Virus record (IMG/VR): IMGVR_UViG_3300009514_000017 | Location: 1-64,000 of that record | Source of the DNA: a virus | DNA length: 64,000 nt | Reading direction: 5' to 3' (one strand) | Shown: piece by piece, positions 1,068-64,000 of the stretch | Position numbering within the stretch: position 1 is the first letter of the stretch | How the letters are laid out: each line of letters begins with the position of its first letter | The notes under the pieces: model-generated | Told to the model about the DNA's origin: nothing | Database searches by the model: none | Seen by the model: only the letters and a program-made list of their open reading frames with translations | Made by a program: the position numbers and the translations under genes

Positions 1068-1132
1068 TCAATGAGGTTGGCCAGGCCGTATAGTTGGGGC
1101 TGTGTACGCACTTTGCTCCTGAGAGAGACGCG

Positions 1133-1372
1133 ATGATAAATCTAGATTCCTTCGTAGACGAGCTCACCAAGATCTCTGGAGTCCCTGGTAAGGGGATGTT
1201 GGGCAGAGCCATCAAGAGCAGGCTCTTGATTGGTGGAGGTCTGGTTGGCACCGGAGCAGTTGGAGTCAAGGCTGGTGAGAGTGCGCTTGACGATTACAAG
1301 CGTGGCCGAGTCATGCGTAAGCAGCAAGAGATGCAGGAGCGAATGCAGCGGCAGATGGAGAGTTTCCGGTGA
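1133..1372 (+). CDS. small protein with FxDELxKIS N-terminal motif and Gly-rich hydrophobic segment (putative internal head/ejection protein)
   Basis: ATG at 1133 gives MINLDSFVDELTKISG; contains LLIGGGLVGTGAVGV; overlaps the next gene (GTGA). Confidence 0.7.
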   Translation: MINLDSFVDELTKISGVPGKGMLGRAIKSRLLIGGGLVGTGAVGVKAGESALDDYKRGRVMRKQQEMQERMQRQMESFR

Positions 1373-2221: not shown

Positions 2222-3094
2222 TTGGATAGCAAGGAGCAAGCCTTCGATGAGATCATGGAGAAGCTGGCTGTTCTGAAGCCCGCTAATAGGCTGCCGTATA
2301 CTCCAGCTCTGCCTGTAATACCTAATGCACACAAACCTCTCGCCTCGATTCAAAAGCGAGAGGTAGCGATGTGGCAGGAAGCCAAGAAGTCGAACTGGGA
2401 TCCCCAATTCACCAAACCGCTGTTGCGCTCTATGGAACCTCTCATTCAGAAGAGGTCCAGCCTGTACAAGAACCGTGGCGTCGAAATCCCACATAAAGCC
2501 GTGGACTTCGAGCATAGACGCCTGGCTCTGGAAGCTATCAAGACCTACGACCCCAACAGAGGAACCAAGCTTGGAACCTGGGTGACTGGAAGATTGAAGA
2601 ACGCTTCCAAGTTCATCGGTCAGAACCAGAACACAGCAAGAATCGTCGACGCCATCTCCGCTAAGATTGGAGACTACCAGCGTTTCAAGTCTGAATTGTC
2701 AGATCAACTAGGTCGTGAACCAACAGCTCAAGAAATCCATGACAACTTGATGAAGATCGACCACGACTTCGAGAGGTTGAGGGGAACCTCTCTTCGTGAA
2801 ATTCATCGTCTGGATAAGGAGCAGCGCAAAGATCTGTTCAGCACTGGGTCTGAAATAAACATGTCGGGTGCAGCGAGAACTCTAGATTACAACAAGGAGT
2901 TGATGCACACGATCATGGATGAATTGACTCCAGAGGAAAAAAAGGTTCATGTCCTGACGATGGGACTGGAAGGAAATCCAAGATTGCCTCCAGGACAGAT
3001 AGCCCGCAGACTCCATATGGACAACTCTAAGGTGTCCAAGATTCGCACCTCCATCCTCAAGAAGATGGAGCCATACAGGGTGGATCTACTCTGA
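2222..3094 (+). CDS. sigma70-family RNA polymerase sigma factor (FliA/SigB-like architecture, divergent)
   Basis: Region 2 LEAIKTYDPNRGTKLGTW (cf. AVxxFDPxRGxKFSTY); region 3 LSDQLGREPTAQEI; region 4 ELTPEEKKVHVLTMGL...PGQIARRLHMDNSKVSKIR. Confidence 0.88.
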   Translation: MDSKEQAFDEIMEKLAVLKPANRLPYTPALPVIPNAHKPLASIQKREVAMWQEAKKSNWDPQFTKPLLRSMEPLIQKRSSLYKNRGVEIPHKAVDFEHRRLALEAIKTYDPNRGTKLGTWVTGRLKNASKFIGQNQNTARIVDAISAKIGDYQRFKSELSDQLGREPTAQEIHDNLMKIDHDFERLRGTSLREIHRLDKEQRKDLFSTGSEINMSGAARTLDYNKELMHTIMDELTPEEKKVHVLTMGLEGNPRLPPGQIARRLHMDNSKVSKIRTSILKKMEPYRVDLL

Positions 3095-11738: not shown

Positions 11739-11762
11739 CTCTGGTGTGATTTCGCAGAACTC

Positions 11763-11800
11763 GCTACGATCCCGTCGGGCCTTCCCGACGGGATCGTGGC
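11763..11800 (+). terminator. strong intergenic stem-loop (terminator or mRNA-stabilising hairpin)
   Basis: gctacgatcccgtcggg-cctt-cccgacgggatcgtggc, a 17-bp stem with one G-U; only a weak U-tract follows. Confidence 0.55.
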
Positions 11801-11868
11801 ATGTTTGGTGCTAGACTCCTGGTTGTGTTTTCACGATGAGCTGATGAGAAAAGTGGAGGAGGTGTCGA

Positions 11869-14196
11869 GTGTCAATCAGAACCGACATTTCAATCGATTG
11901 GAACGCATCTCCACGCATCATCACGGTGGCCGCCCCATCCACCGAATTCAACGCTCAAGACATCGTCGACACACTTCGGTTCGAGGAATCCAGAGTTTGG
12001 AACGCCCAATATCGGAAGCTTCTAACAGCGGCAGGTAAAGAAGAGCTAGGTGGTGGCACGGAAGTTGGTGTTACTATAACTCTCCAGAATTCAGTAGTTG
12101 CTTTTGAGGCTCGTAAGACTTCCACATCTGAAGGCACAGCTACAGCTCAAGACACTACTGGTGTCACACTCACAGATTCCGCAGCTGACTTTGTCGCTGA
12201 CTCGGTAGTTGCTGGGGCCTGGTTAGTTAACCTAACTGATTCTTCAGTTTGTACAGTGTTGGAGGTGGTTGACCTAAACACTTTAAGAACAGATGGGCTC
12301 GGAGACGGTATAGATAATCAGTTTGATATTGGTGATTCTTATTCAATCATCAACGTCATTGGTTGTGATCTGTCGGGTGGAAACGTGTTGGCAGTTGATT
12401 CTGGTGGTGCGTTCATTTCTCCTGTGCTTCCTACAGCAGGAACTCAGGTGAGGTTGACAGCGTCGAGTGCCGCCACAACCCAGAACCAAGCACAGTTAGA
12501 GCACTCTTCGTTTAACGGGGTGGTGACGTTTGACCAAGCAAACGGCACCCCCGGGTCAATCGGTTTGGCGGGCAGCCCCACACAGCCGGTGAATAATGTC
12601 CCGGACATGCGGATTATCGCAACGGCTCGTGGGTTTTCCAAGATTCAGATCATCGGAGATGCGACGTTCGACACGGGTGATGACATCAGTGGGTTCATCA
12701 TCTACGGAGAGAACCCTAGCAAGACACTACTCACGTTCAACGCAGGGGCGTTGACATCAGGGATTGATGTCAACGATGCAACGGTCACAGGTACGTTCGA
12801 CACGTCTGCCAGCTTCACCGACTGCCACTTGGAGACCATTTCGTTCGTGAAAAGTATCATCAACCGTTGTGTTCTGAATGGGCCTATCACTCTCGCCGGA
12901 ACTGGAACGACCATCATAACGAACTCCAGCGATGGGTTGGTCAATACGGCGCCGCCACCGTCTGTGGACTTCGACGGCTCCGGACGGTCTCTCGCGATTC
13001 GCAATTATCATGGAGATATACAGCTCAAGAACAAATCTGGGTCTGAGCGCATCGAGGTCAACATTAACTCGGGTGGGTTGATTGTGTTGGATGACACGAT
13101 AACCGCTGGTGTCATCCGGCTATCCGGGCTGTTGCACGTTCAGGACTTGACCGGACCCGGAGTCACGGTAGACGTGTCGGATGTCATCTACCCGGAGCAG
13201 CAGCAGCTTTCAGCGTTCGTTGACGCAGTGCATCTCGACGTGGTTGGTGGCACTGCGGGCATCAAGTATCCGCAGGGGACATCGCAGTATCCTGTAGACA
13301 ACCTGGCAGATGCTTTGACGATCTTGAACGAGAGGAATCTGGATGAGCTTCACGTTATCGGGGATCTAACTATTGGTGCGACGGACAACATCGACGGTCT
13401 ACGGATAGTGGGGCAGCACCGCAACAGAACAACGCTAACGTTAGTAGCGGGATGTTCCACGATGGACTCATACATCTCACACTGCACGCTCACCGGAGTA
13501 GTGAATGGGAGCATCGTCGTTCAGTCCTCGGTGGTGTACGGGTTGTTGAACGTCGGTAGCGAAGCGAAGTCGTCCTTCTTCTTAGACACGTCGCCGATCT
13601 CTGACGGCGGGTCAGCTATTACGTTTCGTAACGATCTAGCCAATCCGATGCCGGTGTATGTACTTCAGTGCTTCTCTGGCGAGATCGGGCACATGCCAGC
13701 CGTGATCGACATGAACGACTCACTACAGACCTTCACGGTTCAGAGTTGGTCTGGCGGGATTGGGTTCAAAAATTGGTCTCAGGGACAGGTGTGTAGTGTT
13801 GATGCAGACTCTGGACACGCCATTCCAGATTCGTCCTGCACGAGCGGAACTCTCATCCTGCATGGCACGATTGTAGTCACCAACAACTCTACGGGAGCCT
13901 TCGTCGTGGACCAGTCAGAGGCAGTGGGCGCAGGGGGCGCAGAGGGTATTGCGGCAAGTGTGTGGGGGACCTCGTTCGCCGGCGGGTTGTCTGCGCAGCA
14001 GTCAGTAGAGCAGGCGGCATTGGAAGCCAAGATTGGACGTCAGATCTTGCGTAACAACATCACTTGGGATCCTGGAACTGCCGTCATGACCATATATGAC
14101 GACGATGACACGACCATCTTGTTCAAGAGTCTATTTACGGATGCTACGGCTACCCCGTCCGTGGCTAACCCACTCAATAGAGAAAAGGTTCCGTGA
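11869..14196 (+). CDS. virion/tail protein with internal tandem duplication
   Basis: Two copies of G[ST]xxxPV[ND]N..D...I.GD.T...D.I.G..I.G; GTG start preceded by GGAGGAGG. Confidence 0.7.
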   Translation: MSIRTDISIDWNASPRIITVAAPSTEFNAQDIVDTLRFEESRVWNAQYRKLLTAAGKEELGGGTEVGVTITLQNSVVAFEARKTSTSEGTATAQDTTGVTLTDSAADFVADSVVAGAWLVNLTDSSVCTVLEVVDLNTLRTDGLGDGIDNQFDIGDSYSIINVIGCDLSGGNVLAVDSGGAFISPVLPTAGTQVRLTASSAATTQNQAQLEHSSFNGVVTFDQANGTPGSIGLAGSPTQPVNNVPDMRIIATARGFSKIQIIGDATFDTGDDISGFIIYGENPSKTLLTFNAGALTSGIDVNDATVTGTFDTSASFTDCHLETISFVKSIINRCVLNGPITLAGTGTTIITNSSDGLVNTAPPPSVDFDGSGRSLAIRNYHGDIQLKNKSGSERIEVNINSGGLIVLDDTITAGVIRLSGLLHVQDLTGPGVTVDVSDVIYPEQQQLSAFVDAVHLDVVGGTAGIKYPQGTSQYPVDNLADALTILNERNLDELHVIGDLTIGATDNIDGLRIVGQHRNRTTLTLVAGCSTMDSYISHCTLTGVVNGSIVVQSSVVYGLLNVGSEAKSSFFLDTSPISDGGSAITFRNDLANPMPVYVLQCFSGEIGHMPAVIDMNDSLQTFTVQSWSGGIGFKNWSQGQVCSVDADSGHAIPDSSCTSGTLILHGTIVVTNNSTGAFVVDQSEAVGAGGAEGIAASVWGTSFAGGLSAQQSVEQAALEAKIGRQILRNNITWDPGTAVMTIYDDDDTTILFKSLFTDATATPSVANPLNREKVP

Positions 14197-55037: not shown

Positions 55038-55970
55038 ATGAACCAGCCAGAGATCGAATTCTACAAGCGCTTGACTGAATTCGTTCCGACTGCTCCTACT
55101 GAAGGCAGTCCTGTAGAGGAACGTTTCAAGGCTGTTCCAGATTACAAGATCCCAGTTAGCCCTAAGAACCTCTTCACTCATCAGGAAATCCACCCCATCG
55201 TTCTAGACCTATCTCTACTAAAGGCTTTCGGTGAGGAGTGGTACTACTGGGAAGTTCCGACTCTGTGGAAGTCCATCCACGACGAGTTCAAGTCCAAGGT
55301 GTCGGAGTCGAACAGAGCCAAGATCAACGCTGTAAGAACTGCAAGAATCACCACCCTACCGTGGGATAGCTGGCACGTTTTCGAGAATGTGGTACTAGCA
55401 CTAGATGGATTTGTTCCACGGTGGGACATCCTACAGAAAGTAGATCTTGAGTCACTGTTCGTAGGAGTGGACATCCTGGAGCAGATCAGACCTGAGGACT
55501 ATTCGGAAGATGTCCGCAACTACATAGCTGCTGTCTTCTTGGATGATGATGTCTTCTTCACCCCTCCACCACTAGAGTTTTCACAGGCAGAAGTCTCGCA
55601 GCCCTATTACCTTTGCAAGGATTGTGGAAATGAGGAGTGGGCGCTACATCACGATGGCATCTGCTCCGTGTGCTCTGGTAGATACGATCCAGAGAACGGT
55701 TTGTCGATGCGGCCTTCCCAAGAAGCCATAGACAAGAAGCTCGGGCAGAACACCGTGTTACGATACAAGTTCGACCCTGGGCCTGAGCAGAGAGTCTGGG
55801 ATCTAGTGGCCAGGTCCAAGAATGAGCAGTCGATTTTGAAGGTGGCTGGTCCAGCAGAGATAGGTGTGTCAAAGCTGCTGGATGCTAGAGACCTCATGAA
55901 CATCAGGCGCAGACAGCTCAAGAACCAGCTGACCGCTCTCAAGTCTTGGCTGAACTCGAGGTCTTCATGA
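55038..55970 (+). CDS. hypothetical protein with Zn ribbon
   Basis: CKDCG...CSVCSG. Confidence 0.7.
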   Translation: MNQPEIEFYKRLTEFVPTAPTEGSPVEERFKAVPDYKIPVSPKNLFTHQEIHPIVLDLSLLKAFGEEWYYWEVPTLWKSIHDEFKSKVSESNRAKINAVRTARITTLPWDSWHVFENVVLALDGFVPRWDILQKVDLESLFVGVDILEQIRPEDYSEDVRNYIAAVFLDDDVFFTPPPLEFSQAEVSQPYYLCKDCGNEEWALHHDGICSVCSGRYDPENGLSMRPSQEAIDKKLGQNTVLRYKFDPGPEQRVWDLVARSKNEQSILKVAGPAEIGVSKLLDARDLMNIRRRQLKNQLTALKSWLNSRSS

Positions 55971-56503
55971 TTGATTATTCAGCCTTCACTGATGAGCTGG
56001 AGAAGATTGGTGGAGTAGGAACCTTTCTTCAGAAACAGATCAAAAACGTTGGCAACACGATTAATGACTTTGCTAATCCCATAAAATCCATGAAGGCTGG
56101 ATGGGAGTCTGGTGCTGCCGGTAGATCGTTTGGTGGATGGGGCGGTAAGCTACTGACAGACAAAAATAAGCCGTCGTTCTGGCGTCATCTACCTGTAGGA
56201 CCCAAGGCTCAGATAACAGGCTTTACTGCACTTGAAGCTCCAGGCGCCCTCGCCAAAGAAGACCCTAGTGGCGAGGGGCGATCTCGTCTGCGTCGTGTAT
56301 CTGGAACCCTTGGTGGGACCGGAGGTTTTTTGGTCGGTGGTAGACATGGACTCCTTGGCTCTCTGGTTGGTGGAGCCATTGGCCAGAAGATGTTGAGTGG
56401 GTCTGTAGGATTAGGGGAGAGCACTGTAGAAGCTGTCAAGCAACTCAAACGTCAGAGAAAGTTTAATGCATTGAATACAACGCAGACCCCCGTGGGGCCG
56501 TAA
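55967..56503 (+). CDS. glycine-zipper protein with AFTDELEKIG motif (putative ejection/membrane-channel protein)
   Basis: ATGA overlap; GTLGGTGGFLVGG..GLLGSLVGGAIG. Confidence 0.65.
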   Translation: MIDYSAFTDELEKIGGVGTFLQKQIKNVGNTINDFANPIKSMKAGWESGAAGRSFGGWGGKLLTDKNKPSFWRHLPVGPKAQITGFTALEAPGALAKEDPSGEGRSRLRRVSGTLGGTGGFLVGGRHGLLGSLVGGAIGQKMLSGSVGLGESTVEAVKQLKRQRKFNALNTTQTPVGP

Positions 56504-58509
56504 TGTCGTCAGATCTAGACTTCTACAACTCCCTGTCTGGCGTATCCAGATTCTCTGGTGTTCGTGGTCGGCTCTCGCAAGGTGGGTCGTTTCCAGCTCG
56601 CTATCCATCCCCATTCTTCGATCTCGGTCATACTTGGCTACCACACTCGATTGGCAAGCTGCATCAGTGGTGCCGCTACTATTACCTAGTCAATCCACTG
56701 ATCAATGCCGTCATTCACAAGATGGCGGAATATCCAATCACTGAGATTGTCGTCAACGAGGTAAACAAGACCACCAAGGAAAAGTGGGAGCACATTCTAG
56801 GACAGCATCTTCGTATTCGTGCGTTCCAGGTAGAAGCTGGCCTCGACTACTTCACTTACGGGATCTGCATTATCACGATGCACTTCCCATTCGAGAAGTA
56901 TCTCGCTTGCACGAACTGCAAGTTCGAGGACAAGGCCAGCAACCTCAAGTACAAGTGGCGCAACCTGAACTACATCCTTCGTTGTCCCAAGTGTGACCAC
57001 GAGGGGCCAACCAAGGTTCGAGACCAGTACCTGAAGGACTTCCGTCGAATCAGGTTGATGAGATGGAATCCAGAGTACGTCTACATAGAGCAGGGGTTTG
57101 CTGGCGCGGAGCCCATCTACACTTTTATGGTTCCGAAGGGTCTCAAAAACGAGATCATGATGGGCAAGACCCGCGTTCTCAACACGGTTCCAGATATCTA
57201 CATTGAAGCGTTGAAGCGCAACAGGAATATAGCGTTCGCTCCAGAGAACATGTTCGTGATGAAGCGGCCAATCATCTCTCAGAGAGAGACGGGTTGGGGT
57301 ATGCCTCTCATCCTTCCTGTTCTGAAGGACGCTTTCTACCTTCAGATCTTGCGCAAGTCTCAGGAAGCTATAGCTTCTGAGCATATCGTTCCACTTCGTG
57401 TTCTGTTCCCTCAGGCAGGAAGCGGAACGAGCGATCCATATACCTCAATCCCAATTGAGTCTTGGAGGTCCCGTATAGAGCGTGAGATCACCAAGTGGAA
57501 GTACGACCCAAACTACATTCCTGTTCTTCCTCTACCTATTGGGTCTCAGTCCATTGGTGGAGATCAGAAAGCTTTGAATCTGCACCAGGAGATCAGCCTC
57601 TGGTCTGAGCAGATCGTTGCAGGAATGGGAGTGCCGAGAGAGTTCGTGTTCGGCGGCCTTACATTCTCTGGCTCCAACGTGTCGATGAGGATGTTGGAGA
57701 ACGCTTTCATCAACTACCGTATCGACCAAGACAACCTCTTGAATGAGTTCATCATCAGGAGAGTTGCAGACTACATGGGTTGGCCATCGGTGCGCGTATC
57801 TATGCGCAAGTTCAAGATGGCAGACGATCTACAGAGGATGAGCTTCCAGTTCCAGCTCAACCAGGCAATGAAGATCTCAGACGAGTCTCTGTTGAAGGAA
57901 TGCGACCACGATCCAGTAGTTGAGAAGGAGCGCAAGGAGCGTGAGGTTGGAGCTCAACTCGAGTACCAGCGCAAGATGCAGCTATCACAGGCTGAGACTC
58001 AGGGTCAGATGTTGCTTGTTCAGTCTCGCTATCAGGCTGCTGCCCAAAGCATGTTGGCTCCGGCTATGCCTGTGCAGCCTGGAGCTCAACAGGGTGCAGC
58101 ACAGCTCGGTGGCCAGCAGGGTGAGATGGTTTCAGGAGACCAACTTGGAATTCCTGGAGTTCCTGGTGACGTTTCTGTCTCTCCAGAGAATGCTCAACAG
58201 CAGCCAGTTGAAGGAGTTCCGACTGAAGCTCAGAGTCCTCTCAGCATGAACACACAGGGTGCTGGGATAGACATTAGGTACGTTGCTAAGAGGGTACTGG
58301 CTCAAATCCAGAAGCTGTATGCCCAAGATCCACAGCAGGCGAACATGAAGCTTGAGGAGATCAGGGCATCCAATCCACAGCTATATAGTCTTCTCATCCA
58401 GATGGCTAACAGTAGGGTTGGCTCTCAAACCGATCCACTAAATCCGGTTCAGTCTCCGCAGCCACAGGTGAAGCCACCTCGTAGCCCCAAGTCTCCAGCG
58501 GCTGCGTGA
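56503..58509 (+). CDS. portal protein with Zn-ribbon insertion and Q/P-rich C-terminus
   Basis: YYLVNPLINAVIHKMAEYP; GWGMPLI; IVAGMGVPREFVFGG...SNV; size and architecture fit large-phage portals. Confidence 0.75.
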   Translation: MSSDLDFYNSLSGVSRFSGVRGRLSQGGSFPARYPSPFFDLGHTWLPHSIGKLHQWCRYYYLVNPLINAVIHKMAEYPITEIVVNEVNKTTKEKWEHILGQHLRIRAFQVEAGLDYFTYGICIITMHFPFEKYLACTNCKFEDKASNLKYKWRNLNYILRCPKCDHEGPTKVRDQYLKDFRRIRLMRWNPEYVYIEQGFAGAEPIYTFMVPKGLKNEIMMGKTRVLNTVPDIYIEALKRNRNIAFAPENMFVMKRPIISQRETGWGMPLILPVLKDAFYLQILRKSQEAIASEHIVPLRVLFPQAGSGTSDPYTSIPIESWRSRIEREITKWKYDPNYIPVLPLPIGSQSIGGDQKALNLHQEISLWSEQIVAGMGVPREFVFGGLTFSGSNVSMRMLENAFINYRIDQDNLLNEFIIRRVADYMGWPSVRVSMRKFKMADDLQRMSFQFQLNQAMKISDESLLKECDHDPVVEKERKEREVGAQLEYQRKMQLSQAETQGQMLLVQSRYQAAAQSMLAPAMPVQPGAQQGAAQLGGQQGEMVSGDQLGIPGVPGDVSVSPENAQQQPVEGVPTEAQSPLSMNTQGAGIDIRYVAKRVLAQIQKLYAQDPQQANMKLEEIRASNPQLYSLLIQMANSRVGSQTDPLNPVQSPQPQVKPPRSPKSPAAA

Positions 58510-59648: not shown

Positions 59649-59681
59649 TCGTTGACCTAATCAGCACCTGACCTGTACTCT
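59649..59681 (+). promoter_or_regulatory. sigma70-like promoter TCG-TTGACC-N18-TACTCT upstream of the RNAP gene
   Basis: -35 at 59652-59657, -10 at 59676-59681. Confidence 0.6.
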
Positions 59682-59756: not shown

Positions 59757-62700
59757 ATGGCACGCATATCCCCGACTGAGGTCTTTGATGGCCTCAAGAA
59801 AAACACAGTCGAGTCCATCAAGTCCTACTTCCCGTTTGAAGAGGGAGGTAAGAGGCTTGAGGTCGAAGACGTTTGGGTCGATGACAAACTGGACGTCAAC
59901 GATATTCAATCACAACAGAAGGCCAAGCTCGATGACAAGACCTGGGGTGTAAAGGTCAAAGCCAAGATGAAGCTCACCGATATCAAGACCGGCAAGGTCT
60001 TGGATCGAGCTACGTCCAGTGTGGCCACTCTGCCGAAGATGACGAATCGCTTCGGCTACATCGTTGGTGGAAACGAGTATCAGGTAGACAATCTCTTCAG
60101 ATTGAAGAGCGGTGTCTACACCCGAATCCAGAACAACGGCGAGTTGGAGTCTGAATTCAACTTGGCCAAGAGCCCTGTGGGTGGTCGCGGGTTCTCGGTC
60201 CACTTCGATCCAGAACGCAAGAAATTCTCGCTTCTCTACAAGACAGCCAAGATTCCACTCCTCCCAATCCTCAAGAGCATGGGGATGGCAGACGATGACA
60301 TCAAGAAGAACTGGGGCAAGGAGATCTACGAGGCGAACTCCCCCAAGTCTCAGAAGGCTTATGACCAAGCACTGTTGGATTTCCAGACCAAGACCAGTGG
60401 AGATGCCACGTTCAAAGGGTCGAAAGATCCTAAGGAGTACATCAAGGAGTTCTTTCATCAGTCTGAGTTGCGACCAGACACGACCTCCATCACTCTAGGA
60501 AAGCCATTCGATAGAGTGAGCCACGAGGTTCTATCGATTGCAGCCAACAAGGTTCTCGGTGTGTCTCGAGGAACCAACGAGCCTGACGACCGTGACAGTC
60601 TGGCGTTCAAGGAAATCACCTCCACCGAGGACTTCATTCCAGAGAAGATCGAGAGGTCTGCTAGGGCTATCCGGGGCAAGCTTCGTCAGACTATGGGGAG
60701 GAAAGACAAGATCAAGGAGATTATCCCTTCCGGTGAAAGAGGTCTGTTTGGTCAGCCAGTACATGACTTCTTTACCAAGGGCGGGTCTGTTGCTGAGTTG
60801 TCTGACCAGACCAACCCATTGCAGATCTTGTCTGCACATCGCAAGACTACCTTGATGTCAGAGCAGTTCGGCGGCATGAAGTCCGAACACTCTCTCACCC
60901 CAGAGATGAAGGTGGTCAACCCTAGCCACATAGGGTTCCTTGACGTGATGAAGACTCCCGAAAGCAGTCGCTCGGGTATCACCGTCAATCTATCGCTACA
61001 GGCACAGAAGAGAGGTAAGGAGCTCGAGGCTCCTGTCTTTGATCTGAAGTCAAAGAAGTTGAAGTACGTCTCAGCCCACGAGTTTCATGGACGCAATTCT
61101 GTATTGCCAGACCAAGTCAAATGGGTTGATGGCAAGCCGGTGCCTATAGCCAGCCGTGTCAAGATGAAGGTCGTTGGCGGGGCGATAGAAGAGCGTCCGT
61201 GGACCGACGCAGATTCTGTAATGCCAACTGCCAAGGGCATGTTTGACTTCACCTCGAACATGATTCCTTTCTTGCCGTCAGACCAGGGCAACCGTGTGTC
61301 GATGGCAGATAAGCAGATGGAGCAGGCTATTAGCCTGAAGCATCGAGAAGCTCCACTCGTTCAGACCAAGACCGAGAAGGAAAAGACGTTCGACAAGGTG
61401 TTGGGAAACTTTGCCTCTCAGAGATCACCCGTTGCCGGGAAAGTAACCGCAGTTAGAGGTAATCAGGTTACGGTCAAGGACGCGAAGAACAAGAGTCATA
61501 ATGTCCACTTGTACGATCACTTCCCTACCAATGACCCAAAGGGAATGTTCCATTCCGAATCGTCTGTGAAGGTCGGAGACCATGTCTCAAAAGGCGATAC
61601 TCTGGCGGATACCAACTTCACAAAGGGTGGAAACCTAGCACTTGGAACCAACCTCCGAGTTGGTTACGTGCCATTCAAGGGCTACAACTTCGAAGACGGT
61701 GTCGTCGTATCTGAGACGGCATCTAAGAAGTTGACCTCCGAACATCTGTACAAAGAGTCACTATCTGTGTCCCCAAACGATGGGGATCGTATTGACAAGA
61801 ATAGATTTGTTGCGGTGGCCAAGCGCAAGATCGCTCAGATGCAGCCAGGAGAGCTGGACGCCATTGGTAGTGATGGTGTGGTCCGCGTTGGTTCACATGT
61901 TCAACCAGGTCAGGTGTTGGTTACTGCGGTTGGTAAAAGCAACCTGGACAAGAGAGATCATGCTCTAGGTTCATTCGGTCGTAGAGCCATGTCATTGGAG
62001 AAGGACAAGTCTCTGGTTTGGAACCACTCCAGTCCTGGAAAGGTGGTTCGTGTAGTCAAGAGCCCTAATGGTAAAGAGATAAAGGTTCACGTCAAGACTG
62101 AGGAACCTTTGGTCGTCGGCGATAAGGTGGCCGGACGCCACGGTAACAAGGGCATCGTCACTAAGATTCTTCCCGATGACGAGATGCCATTTACTGTTGA
62201 TTCTAAGACCAAGGAGAAGAGGCCCATACACGTCCTTCTCAACCCGACCGGCGTGCCTTGCTACGACGATAAGACTGAATTCTTGACCGACACTGGATGG
62301 GTTCAAGCTCCCAAGATCCATGAAGAGCATCGGTTCGCTACGATCAACCCGAAAACTCTAACTCTTGAATTCCAAGATCCAGAGGAGGTTTACCACATAC
62401 CTTACACGGGTAAGATGTACAGGATTCAGAACCAGCAGCTTGACCTACTAGTTACTCCTCACCACAAGCAGTTCACTGCCAAGAGAGGGAACCAGAAGCT
62501 GTATGGAGCGTTGGATTTAGATGACCAGGAGCTTCCGTCTCTGTTTTCATTGGATGAAGCACAGGAAATCATAGGCCAACCAAGGCGGTATCTAAAGGCT
62601 GCTAAGTGGAAAGGTGATAGCGCGGCTTTCTACTATATAGAGCCTGGAACTTACGCTGGAGTAGGGCCTAAGCCTACTCATGGAATGAACATCCCAGCAT

Positions 62701-64000
62701 CTATCTGGGCTGAGTTCATGGGATGGTTCTTGTCTGAAGGAAGCACGTACTTCAACAAGGCTAACTACAGCTACGTTACAGAGATTTCCCAAGACAAGAA
62801 TGTAAATCCAGAAAACTATGATCGCATTCGTACGGTCATGGAATTCTTTGGGCTTACGTTGGAGGAGACGGACTCTGGTATTCGCGTTAAGCACAAGGGC
62901 TTATTTGAACGACTGGCTTTGTTGGGTAAGGCTCGAGAGAAGTATATTCCTAGAGAGATCTTGGACATGGAGCCACGGCATTTAAGGCTATTCCTAGATG
63001 CTGCTGTACGAGGTGATGGATCTGAGACTTGGGATGCAGAGACGGGTCACTACGGTAACAAGAAGTATTGGACTGCTTCTAAAAGGTTGGCTGATGGGAT
63101 TCAGGAAGTAGCTGCCAAGCTTGGAATTGCAGCCAATATAAAGCGTGAGAGTCGTAGAGGTGATGACGCTTGCTACTACATTTCTTTGAGTGGGAGTCGT
63201 TTAGCGCCATGGGTAAATTGGTCATCAACGACTAAGTCTAACCAGGTTGAAGAGTGGGAGGACTACGACGGAGTAGTTCACTGCGCTACAGTTCCGAACG
63301 GAACTCTCTTGGTTCGTAGGAATGGAAAGGCAGTCTTCAGCGGGAATACAAGAATCAACGTTGGTCAGGTTCTAGAGACAGCAGCAGGGAAGATTGCTGA
63401 GAAGACTGGTAAGCCTTTCATAGTCGACAACTTTGGTGACCCCAAGTCCAACAATCGCAAGATGGTAGCGGATGCTCTTAAGGCACACGGGCTCACTGAT
63501 GAAGAAGATGTCTACGACCCGAGCAATGTGAAGAAGCCAATCGGTTCCGTCCTGGTTGGTCCACAGCACATACTCAAGTTGCAGCACCAGGTTGAAAAGA
63601 AGCTTACCTCCCGTGGTGGTTCAACTACTGCTGGTGGAGCTGGACTCAAGTTCGACAGTGACAGGCAGCCACAGAAGGGTGGGGAGCACGGGTCTCAGGG
63701 ATTTGGTCAGCTGGAACTCTACTCGTTGCTTGCACATGGGGCCAAGCACAACATCCGTGAGTTTGCCACGTACAAGTCCGACGAACAGAATGAGCAGTTC
63801 TGGGCGCAACTACAGTCCGGTAGAGAGCCGCCACCTCCAAAGGTGCCATTCGCTTACAACAAGTTTGAAGCTCTCCTAAAGGGGTTGGGTGTCAATGTAG
63901 AGAAGCATGGAACTGAGATTCAACTTCTACCATCAACAGACAGGCAGACTATTGCTGCTGCTGGTGGAGCGTCTGGGGAATTGAAGAAAGCCAACTTGAC
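59757..64000 (+). CDS. rpoB: multisubunit-type RNA polymerase beta subunit, intein-containing, apparently fused to beta-prime (3'-truncated)
   Basis: ATG at 59757 after GAGGT; open to the window end. Motifs: LPKMT..GYIVGGNE, DQTNPL, TPES..SG, IPFL..DQGNR..M..KQM.QA, GYNFEDG, GDKVAGRHGNKG, LNPTGVP|TRINVGQ, LKL.H.V..K, LLKGLGVNVE, then IQLLPST..TI....GELKK. Confidence 0.93.
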   Translation, partial: MARISPTEVFDGLKKNTVESIKSYFPFEEGGKRLEVEDVWVDDKLDVNDIQSQQKAKLDDKTWGVKVKAKMKLTDIKTGKVLDRATSSVATLPKMTNRFGYIVGGNEYQVDNLFRLKSGVYTRIQNNGELESEFNLAKSPVGGRGFSVHFDPERKKFSLLYKTAKIPLLPILKSMGMADDDIKKNWGKEIYEANSPKSQKAYDQALLDFQTKTSGDATFKGSKDPKEYIKEFFHQSELRPDTTSITLGKPFDRVSHEVLSIAANKVLGVSRGTNEPDDRDSLAFKEITSTEDFIPEKIERSARAIRGKLRQTMGRKDKIKEIIPSGERGLFGQPVHDFFTKGGSVAELSDQTNPLQILSAHRKTTLMSEQFGGMKSEHSLTPEMKVVNPSHIGFLDVMKTPESSRSGITVNLSLQAQKRGKELEAPVFDLKSKKLKYVSAHEFHGRNSVLPDQVKWVDGKPVPIASRVKMKVVGGAIEERPWTDADSVMPTAKGMFDFTSNMIPFLPSDQGNRVSMADKQMEQAISLKHREAPLVQTKTEKEKTFDKVLGNFASQRSPVAGKVTAVRGNQVTVKDAKNKSHNVHLYDHFPTNDPKGMFHSESSVKVGDHVSKGDTLADTNFTKGGNLALGTNLRVGYVPFKGYNFEDGVVVSETASKKLTSEHLYKESLSVSPNDGDRIDKNRFVAVAKRKIAQMQPGELDAIGSDGVVRVGSHVQPGQVLVTAVGKSNLDKRDHALGSFGRRAMSLEKDKSLVWNHSSPGKVVRVVKSPNGKEIKVHVKTEEPLVVGDKVAGRHGNKGIVTKILPDDEMPFTVDSKTKEKRPIHVLLNPTGVPCYDDKTEFLTDTGWVQAPKIHEEHRFATINPKTLTLEFQDPEEVYHIPYTGKMYRIQNQQLDLLVTPHHKQFTAKRGNQKLYGALDLDDQELPSLFSLDEAQEIIGQPRRYLKAAKWKGDSAAFYYIEPGTYAGVGPKPTHGMNIPASIWAEFMGWFLSEGSTYFNKANYSYVTEISQDKNVNPENYDRIRTVMEFFGLTLEETDSGIRVKHKGLFERLALLGKAREKYIPREILDMEPRHLRLFLDAAVRGDGSETWDAETGHYGNKKYWTASKRLADGIQEVAAKLGIAANIKRESRRGDDACYYISLSGSRLAPWVNWSSTTKSNQVEEWEDYDGVVHCATVPNGTLLVRRNGKAVFSGNTRINVGQVLETAAGKIAEKTGKPFIVDNFGDPKSNNRKMVADALKAHGLTDEEDVYDPSNVKKPIGSVLVGPQHILKLQHQVEKKLTSRGGSTTAGGAGLKFDSDRQPQKGGEHGSQGFGQLELYSLLAHGAKHNIREFATYKSDEQNEQFWAQLQSGREPPPPKVPFAYNKFEALLKGLGVNVEKHGTEIQLLPSTDRQTIAAAGGASGELKKANL
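62259..63347 (+). mobile_element. intein with LAGLIDADG homing endonuclease (363 aa) in RNAP beta
   Basis: Starts CYDDKTEFLT; block B LLVTPHH; endonuclease motifs FMGWFLSEGS and FLDAAVRGDGS; ends VHCATVPNGTLLVRRNGKAVFSGN, then +1 Thr. Removing it restores NPTGVP-TRINVGQ (cf. NPLGVPSRMNIGQ). Confidence 0.93.

Follow-up and report, generated by a model that had tools for sequence, protein, structure and literature searches.

A single-chain, bacterial-type RNA polymerase interrupted by two inteins and encoded beside the portal gene of a large phage

The window analysed here, a stretch of 64,000 bases, corresponds to bases 1-64000 of a single 75,790-base IMG/VR virus record (IMGVR_UViG_3300009514_000017), classed as linear and ~40% complete; window and record share one numbering, and coordinates of the locus extracted from the record (L001) are converted to it by adding 56000. 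Near the 3' end of the window begins a gene coding for both the beta and beta-prime subunits of an RNA polymerase (RNAP) in one frame, and comparison with relatives confirmed that this single-polypeptide beta/beta-prime fusion is a trait of an entire phage family. With a probability of about 0.62, we read the gene as encoding an active single-chain core that is freed of two inteins by splicing, works with a sigma factor of the phage and without alpha or omega subunits, and is packed in the capsid. The parts of the gene, several of which lie in the record beyond the window, are the following (aa, amino acids; pLDDT, predicted local distance difference test; a slash marks an insertion point):

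59757-64000, + strand: in-window part of the fused RNAP gene; the whole gene runs to record base 68636 (2,959 codons plus TGA)
59757-62258, + strand: beta N-extein, aa 1-834, containing GYNFEDG (aa 642-648) and GRHGNKG (aa 793-799)
62259-63347, + strand: intein 1, aa 835-1197 (363 aa), in the beta site NPxGVP/TRINxGQ, delimited by alignment with intein-free relatives
63348-63911, + strand: beta C-extein, aa 1198-1385, ending with the last beta strand
63891-63932, + strand: joint, aa 1379-1392, from the alignment and an AlphaFold2 model (pLDDT 86-95)
63912-64000, + strand: start of the beta-prime N-extein, aa 1386 onwards, extending to record base 65093 (aa 1779)
record 64485-64595, + strand, outside the window: beta-prime clamp helices
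record 65073-65093, + strand, outside the window: NADFDGD, aa 1773-1779
record 65094-66590 (L001:9094-10590), + strand, outside the window: intein 2, aa 1780-2278 (499 aa), directly after the third catalytic Asp
record 66591-68633, + strand: beta-prime C-extein, aa 2279-2959, with the bridge helix (aa 2561-2586) and trigger loop (aa 2700-2715)

The frame, open from GTG 59748 or ATG 59757 on the + strand, is free of stops up to base 64000 and, counted from the ATG, terminates at TGA 68634-68636 of the record, encoding 2,959 aa. An earlier note, made from the letters of the window, had pointed out this open reading frame (ORF) as unlisted and stop-free, and had read it as beta running straight into beta-prime. 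Indeed, Pfam domains 2, 3, 6 and 7 of Rpb2 precede domains 1-5 of Rpb1 in the same frame, where an intein splicing domain was found as well and LAGLIDADG endonuclease was matched in two regions. The matches to Rpb2_6 (161.5 bits), Rpb1_2 (79.4 bits), Rpb1_5 (79.4 bits) and Rpb2_3 were over the cut-off and that to Rpb1_4 just over it, with Rpb2_2, Rpb2_7, Rpb1_1 and Rpb1_3 falling under it. Removal of the inteins leaves a protein of 2,097 aa, to which beta contributes ~1,020 and beta-prime ~1,075, and the length of about 1020 aa that the note had estimated for intein-free beta is what remains once the 363 aa of intein 1 are subtracted.

At the joint, VNVEKH (aa 1379-1384), the strand with which beta ends, leads through Gly-Thr into EIQLLP, the first strand of beta-prime, so that a two-residue turn alone connects the strands of the two subunits, with no linker between them. 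Even at 29-33% identity, the alignment is free of a variable linker in this region. An AlphaFold2 model of aa 1198-1779, computed from 46 sequences (mean pLDDT 85.1; predicted template-modelling score 0.77), folds the joint as a hairpin, and a Foldseek search with this model led to bacterial beta-prime, including a cyanobacterial N-terminal half. The beta-terminal motif that the note had seen continuing into the beginning of beta-prime (PFAYNKF...GVNVE, from aa 1364, base 63846) is in frame with it, and the outcome that the note had set against its own proposal, an early stop followed by a separate beta-prime gene, was looked for and not seen.

The fusion is not peculiar to this record. One unbroken frame for beta plus beta-prime, with the joint conserved, was present in 79 of the best 80 IMG/VR loci, and a scan of the same database revealed at least 525 relatives, which were recovered with an alignment-based query, a query with the single protein having given no match. 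The protein database contains more than 120 fused proteins of ~2,080-2,110 aa, encoded on contigs of up to 210 kb and 47-63% identical over aa 1198-1779, the longer members containing inteins. Among the shorter database proteins, the nearest matches are truncated copies of the fused protein, followed by a large set of ~1,450-1,500 aa that comprise beta and the N-terminal half of beta-prime, as in the cultured phages described below. Genomes of cellular organisms yielded only two loci of the family, both on 160-200 kb contigs in metagenome bins; all other matches in such genomes were ordinary rpoB-rpoC, with 23-30% identity. Five relatives are complete genomes of 193-202 kb (CheckV 100% for all, terminal repeats in two), each with one Rpb2_6 match. 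The only broken gene among the 80 loci (L029:9953-17023, from a 210-kb IMG/VR record) consists of frames of 796 and 1,560 aa meeting at 12340-12344, a break that could be due to a frameshift or a stop, or else to faulty sequencing. Some family members carry the automatic JGI name 'beta subunit/beta-prime subunit', so annotation pipelines do see the fusion.

The closest cultured counterparts are Salmonella phage Arash (Gp206 and Gp216, with the sigma factor Gp10; OQ632216.1, PMC10585845) and the Vibrio phages D69, D148 and D181, which have the same joint and, as here, are missing the Zn ribbon at the N-terminus of beta-prime. Gp206 of Arash (1,525 aa) aligns across the joint with 33% identity (E 1e-117). 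In the enzymes of the Arash/D69 type, however, beta-prime is cut ~90 residues past the catalytic triad and a second gene of 606-610 aa encodes the other piece (in Arash Gp216, ~4.8 kb away), whereas the chain studied here is continuous; furthermore, no inteins were seen in the Arash and Vibrio phage RNAP genes, compared with two here. The position at which Gp206 stops also ruled out that the Arash split corresponds to the second intein site. In the published annotation of Arash both pieces are named 'subunit beta' and the fusion is unmentioned.

To place the family, two trees were compared, one built with FastTree (68 rows, 1,917 columns) and the other by a short IQ-TREE search (43 rows, 1,757 columns), in which the bacteria were taken from the best tblastn matches and which did not include intein-bearing family members, an archaeal or eukaryotic outgroup, the uncultured-phage mReC enzymes, Helicobacter or Wolbachia. 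In both trees, all 25 sampled bacteria lie on the opposite side of a fully supported branch from the phage group. Within the latter, the fully fused enzymes (support of 98 and 95) and the Arash-type enzymes (93 and 88) are sister groups, joined with a support of 100, and Carin-5 and YerA41 occupy a long separate branch. Of the phylogenetic comparison that the earlier note had envisaged, the part against the sampled bacteria, the Arash-type enzymes, Carin-5 and YerA41 thus stands, with the phage group separate; the trees separate the group from these bacteria but do not tell how deep its branch lies. These two cultured phages have compact RNAP genes of cellular type that are arranged differently: the Cobetia phage Carin-5 (L167) encodes sigma, a beta of 1,083 aa and a beta-prime of 927 aa, similar in size to one of two classes distinguished by size among mReC, and the Yersinia phage YerA41 (L170) encodes an N-terminal and a C-terminal piece of beta-prime and beta.

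The protein was aligned first with 19 relatives and later with 191 (192 family sequences), as well as with bacterial RpoB and RpoC, with which it shares domain order, catalytic motifs, bridge helix, trigger loop, second Zn site and clamp helices. The Mg-binding triad NADFDGD, located in the same frame as beta where the earlier note had expected it, is identical to residues 458-464 of Salmonella beta-prime; GRHGNKG and GYNFEDG correspond to residues 1068-1074 and 809-815 of Salmonella beta, and the bridge helix and trigger loop align to Salmonella RpoC. The four cysteines of the second Zn site (C2597, C2665, C2672 and C2675, matching Salmonella C814, C888, C895 and C898) are invariant in the alignment with 19 relatives. 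By contrast, the beta-prime Zn finger, which the note had also expected, is not there: all four cysteines of the N-terminal Zn ribbon (C70, C72, C85 and C88 of the E. coli type) fall inside a 32-residue deletion, and a short loop substitutes for the ribbon throughout the phage family. Residues 233-348 (SI1), 938-1047 (SI2) and 1125-1178 of Salmonella beta have no counterpart in the phage protein, and the same is true of residues 147-178, 942-1133 (SI3) and the last 41 residues of Salmonella beta-prime; conversely, no phage-specific insert of 20 aa or longer was found relative to the bacterial enzymes. Overall identity is 26% to the Salmonella and 27% to a Bacilli enzyme, and among solved structures bacterial beta-prime chains are the best matches (E ~1e-122). 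The description of the enzyme as compact and bacterial-type therefore holds, and since the proteobacterial insertions SI1-SI3 and the Zn ribbon are missing and nothing of comparable size has been added, the phage protein is, judging from the alignments, a stripped bacterial-type RNAP core.

The two inteins differ in kind. Intein 1 has the features of class 1, namely Cys1, a TPHH block B, a C-terminal Asn and Thr+1, although its penultimate residue is Gly rather than His, and it carries a LAGLIDADG endonuclease (matches to LAGLIDADG_3 and Hom_end). Intein 2 starts with QQLGSV, contains two LAGLIDADG domains and ends with LSN followed by Thr+1, and matches the Intein_splicing model (E 5.8e-7); it is devoid of the class 1 Cys, Ser or Thr at position 1 and of the block-B His, having Gln1 and ITDDDER where TxxH would be expected. 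In the alignment, intein-free relatives read straight through both sites. Across the 192 family sequences we found eight insertion sites, every one of them inside a catalytic motif (TPE/S, GDKL/S, GRHGNK/S, KGIIT/C, NPxGVP/T, NADFDGD/T, MD/SFH and FH/SGG), and some proteins bear up to four inserts, reaching ~3,390 aa. An insert follows NADFDGD in 36 sequences, 35 of which could be typed under a stricter extraction:

~360 aa: Ser start, His-Asn end; 10 sequences
~495-515 aa: Cys, Ser or Thr start, Trp-Asp end (Gln-Asp in one); 13 sequences
~500-530 aa: Gln start (Glu or Asp in two), Leu-Ser-Asn end; 12 sequences, including intein 2

The Gln-start type is defined by the conserved blocks WS.H..R, SG.QI..DDD.R, GYDLTVP..ETF and LSN, then Thr+1; it has no invariant Cys and, with SG.QI..DDD.R in place of TxxH, no block-B His. 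To our knowledge, it fits none of the three known intein classes. The strict conservation of these blocks across diverged exteins argues that inteins of this type work. In three other relatives (P0108, L010 and L043), Asn replaces the third catalytic Asp before an intein of the Cys-start, Trp-Asp-ending type (NADFDGN/C...WD/T), such that either the splice borders are off by one residue or the spliced product is without the third Asp.

Three further features of the window bear on how the enzyme might be used:

2222-3094, + strand: ORF for a putative sigma70-family factor of 290 aa, the likely promoter-recognition partner
56503-58509, + strand: gene for a portal protein of 668 aa, 32% identical to the Arash portal gp204 (E 5e-85)
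59652-59681, + strand: promoter-like element TTGACC-N18-TACTCT, ~75 nucleotides 5' of the ATG

Over residues 66-283 (regions 2-4), the first of these is hit by more than 25 sigma70 models, all short of their curated cut-offs and the best with E 1.8e-11, and the annotated Arash sigma factor Gp10 matches it with E 9e-18. The Pfam matches for regions 2 and 3 are weak, and Sigma70_r4 had no match on this record. The factor is conserved together with the fused enzyme, as a protein-based search found a homologue in all five complete relatives (34-43% identity), of which Pfam Sigma70_r2 matched one, weakly. A complex model of the factor with beta-prime aa 1384-1779 scored 0.72, and the best of three controls scored 0.00; of 80 solved complexes 58 attained the mark of the phage pair, as did 2 of 110 mismatched pairs; contact agreement between runs was at least 49% and the pLDDT of the partner at least 64. 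In the model, residues 59-103 and 134-138 of sigma touch the clamp helices (beta-prime 1577-1613), which is the interface of sigma region 2. Because sigma region 2 and the clamp helices are a textbook pair, the high score may come from resemblance to known holoenzyme structures, and the model shows that the binding surfaces are kept rather than that this copy binds.

With regard to the remaining subunits, which the earlier note had proposed to seek in the genome, Pfam models for alpha (PF01000) and omega (PF01192) matched neither this record nor any of the five complete relatives, and the controls for this search matched in all 14 genomes. The phage core might nevertheless borrow a host alpha.

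The portal gene lies 5' of the RNAP gene on the same strand in 68 of the 70 loci with enough flank, and likewise in D69 and in Arash, where it is two genes 5' of the RNAP and where a homologous sigma factor is present as it is here. The position beside the portal on the structural strand, from which the earlier note had surmised a virion enzyme, is thus a conserved one, and the surmise itself gains support by analogy: in tandem mass spectrometry of purified Arash particles, Gp206 gave the most spectra of all proteins (3,516, compared with 1,333 for the major capsid protein and 1,210 for Gp216), and the sigma factor Gp10 was also detected (PMC10585845). On the strength of these particle data and of the conserved place in the portal module, packaging of the RNAP in the virus particle appears on balance probable. 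It probably acts inside the cell later in infection as well, because it is the only RNAP gene in the complete relatives.

Cellular RNAPs consist of at least four chains assembled on an alpha-dimer scaffold. In the phage protein, the last strand of beta turns into the first strand of beta-prime, tethering the two double-psi-barrel subunits covalently, and this tether could replace the assembly role of the cellular alpha dimer. The precursor would shed both inteins by protein splicing to give a product of ~2,097 aa, as it must, because both sit inside catalytic motifs. The core may then pair with the sigma70-like factor of the phage and be directed to phage promoters, leaving alpha and omega unused. 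Packed in the capsid and delivered with the DNA, as homology with the Arash proteins and the fixed place beside the portal gene suggest, the enzyme would allow phage transcription to begin without that of the host.

Several points weigh against this reading. The record represents ~40% of a genome, so that absences on it count for little, and alpha and omega were sought in the relatives by Pfam only; the sigma matches are all under the curated family cut-offs; intein 2 is without the usual Cys or Ser1 and block-B His, so its splicing is not assured; the element 5' of the gene could mean that the RNAP is produced only once infection has begun, by the enzyme of the host; and the Arash particle list comprises 116 proteins, including ribonucleotide reductases and kinases, its authors themselves reckoning with abundant proteins being carried over (PMC10585845).

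The last two points are also the ones on which the most serious alternative draws, namely that the enzyme is real and active but, instead of being a particle component, is produced in the infected cell, where the host enzyme reads a sigma70-like promoter, and transcribes middle and late genes, its place beside the portal reflecting only late co-expression. The element TTGACC-N18-TACTCT lies ~75 nucleotides 5' of the ATG, clearly non-structural enzymes do appear in the Arash list, and with one RNAP per genome the enzyme must work in the cell anyway. Yet a consensus promoter scan called no site 5' of the RNAP gene. The pattern TTGAC[CT]-N18-TA[CT]NCT occurs three times on the + strand of the record (window 23903, 53620 and 59652) and not on the minus strand, and these sites are candidate promoters for a host or a phage sigma factor; the phage's own factor could equally read the element. 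Moreover, the spectra of the Arash enzyme exceed those of the major capsid protein, and it is accompanied by its second piece and its sigma factor. The gene also stays in the portal module in all but two of the 70 loci. We regard this alternative as possible but less likely.

A second alternative, that this copy is crippled because intein 2 cannot splice and leaves an inactive precursor, starts from the initial Gln, the ITDDDER in place of TxxH and the Ser-Asn end. Against this, 12 members with exteins sharing just ~30-55% identity have this intein type at this site, which suggests selection for function, and the flanking exteins of this copy retain every catalytic motif, which makes a dead enzyme improbable. 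As for the possibility that the fusion is an artefact of misassembly, of a stop lost through sequencing error or of read-through of two genes, nothing was found in its favour apart from the broken gene of L029, and it is already refuted by the comparative data, that is, by the continuous frame in independent assemblies and database proteins, by the same joint in the cultured phages Arash and D69, and by a joint that has neither a spacer nor the context of a start codon and folds as one hairpin. The preferred reading thus remains that of an active, spliced and packaged single-chain core.

Among cellular enzymes, natural RpoBC fusions exist in Helicobacter and Wolbachia, and they have the same topology, with the C-terminus of beta joined to the N-terminus of beta-prime. 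Relative to the bacterial core, the phage enzyme stands apart by the missing Zn ribbon, SI1, SI2 and SI3, by the lack of alpha and omega genes in the genomes searched and by its portal neighbour. A 7.4-kb contig (L113) from a bin labelled Gammaproteobacteria encodes cellular-type beta and beta-prime in one 2,016-aa frame that is still open at the contig end; it is placed with Patescibacteria-like sequences in the tree and may represent a cellular RpoBC fusion from neither Helicobacter nor Wolbachia.

Among phages, a published group to compare is mReC, the multi-subunit-RNAP-encoding Caudovirales (Weinheimer and Aylward 2020). These are uncultured tailed phages, some of ~180-300 kb, whose beta and beta-prime are compact, of cellular type and deeply branching, separate from the cellular ones. 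In the accessible portion of that report, the table entries are separate proteins for beta and beta-prime, unlike the one frame here, the screen demanded separate matches to the two subunits, and fusion is mentioned only for crAss phages (PMC7481178). The fused family differs from this description in its single frame, and both a sister and a within-clade placement are possible. One relative, L043, comes from a sample that was also used in the mReC study; its identity with an mReC contig was considered and rejected, as it has a fused copy with an intein, in contrast to the separate mReC genes.

The phiKZ/AR9-type enzymes are two-barrel relatives that are likewise encoded by phages and work without alpha or omega, and one set of them travels inside the particle, from which it is injected (PMC7598289). 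However, they consist of four or five polypeptides, with two sets per genome and no sigma factor (PMC7598289, PMC7824862), whereas here a single polypeptide, present as one set per genome in the five complete relatives, is accompanied by a sigma70-like gene. The crAss-like gp66 and the RNAP of Thermus phage P23-45, which is fused to the tape measure, are huge single chains with both barrels that are delivered from the particle for early transcription (PMC10770324). According to the accessible text of the mReC report, the crAss enzyme is too diverged for the Pfam models of beta and beta-prime (PMC7481178), unlike the phage enzyme described here, which is bacterial-type over its full length. Functionally, the virion RNAP of N4 is similar, a large single-chain, T7-like enzyme delivered from the particle.

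Downstream of the RNAP gene, the record encodes further conserved proteins, and a short peptide recurs in ORFs scattered along it:

record 68636-71808 (L001:12636-15808) and 71832-72695: conserved downstream genes for proteins of 381, 672 and 287 aa
window 1094-1369, 1321-1734 and 55889-56500, and record 73111-74550 and 74964-75743: ORFs with the peptide F-x-D-E-L-x-K-I

The three genes directly 3' of the RNAP recur in 61 (381 aa), 65 (672 aa) and 50 (287 aa) of 67 loci. None of their products matched a Pfam or PHROG family, the only sign being a faint hint of a baseplate OB domain in the first; the neighbouring proteins as a whole gave almost nothing against PHROGs and Pfam, just a weak portal match and a DNA ligase. 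In four ORFs that are otherwise unrelated, the peptide F-x-D-E-L-x-K-I lies close to the N-terminus, and it is C-terminal in a ligase-like one, with a weaker match at 11739-12035. Considered as a possible cargo tag, it was not found in the RNAP itself.

No description of this fusion was found in the searchable literature, which left out most subscription journals, and reviews of jumbo phage RNAPs cover no fused, sigma-associated enzyme (PMC7598289, PMC7824862). The evidence supports the conclusion that the gene is a member of a sizeable family of phage RNAPs that are bacterial-type and single-chain, unpublished as far as searched, with two inteins in this particular copy. A bolder and more tentative picture, which we think could hold but rather doubt, is that of a self-sufficient minimal machine: a chain of ~2,100 aa plus a small sigma factor, with no alpha, omega or Zn ribbon, packed in phages of ~200 kb and being the only polymerase they need, matured in addition by a mode of intein splicing that lies outside the three described classes and dispenses with the N-terminal nucleophile and the block-B His.

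A natural and abundant one-gene enzyme that retains every catalytic element and a probable sigma partner, but does without alpha, omega, the Zn ribbon and all lineage insertions, shows how small the indispensable part of the bacterial enzyme is, and offers a compact target for structural work as well as for expression of a sigma-dependent polymerase from one gene. The family is also an intein hot spot, including a conserved type in the active-site triad that has no canonical nucleophile. For the biology of large phages, the fused enzyme represents a possible third route to bringing their own transcription with them, besides the split phiKZ and the T7-like N4 enzymes, and the cultured members Arash and Vibrio D69 make the idea of delivery from the particle testable now.

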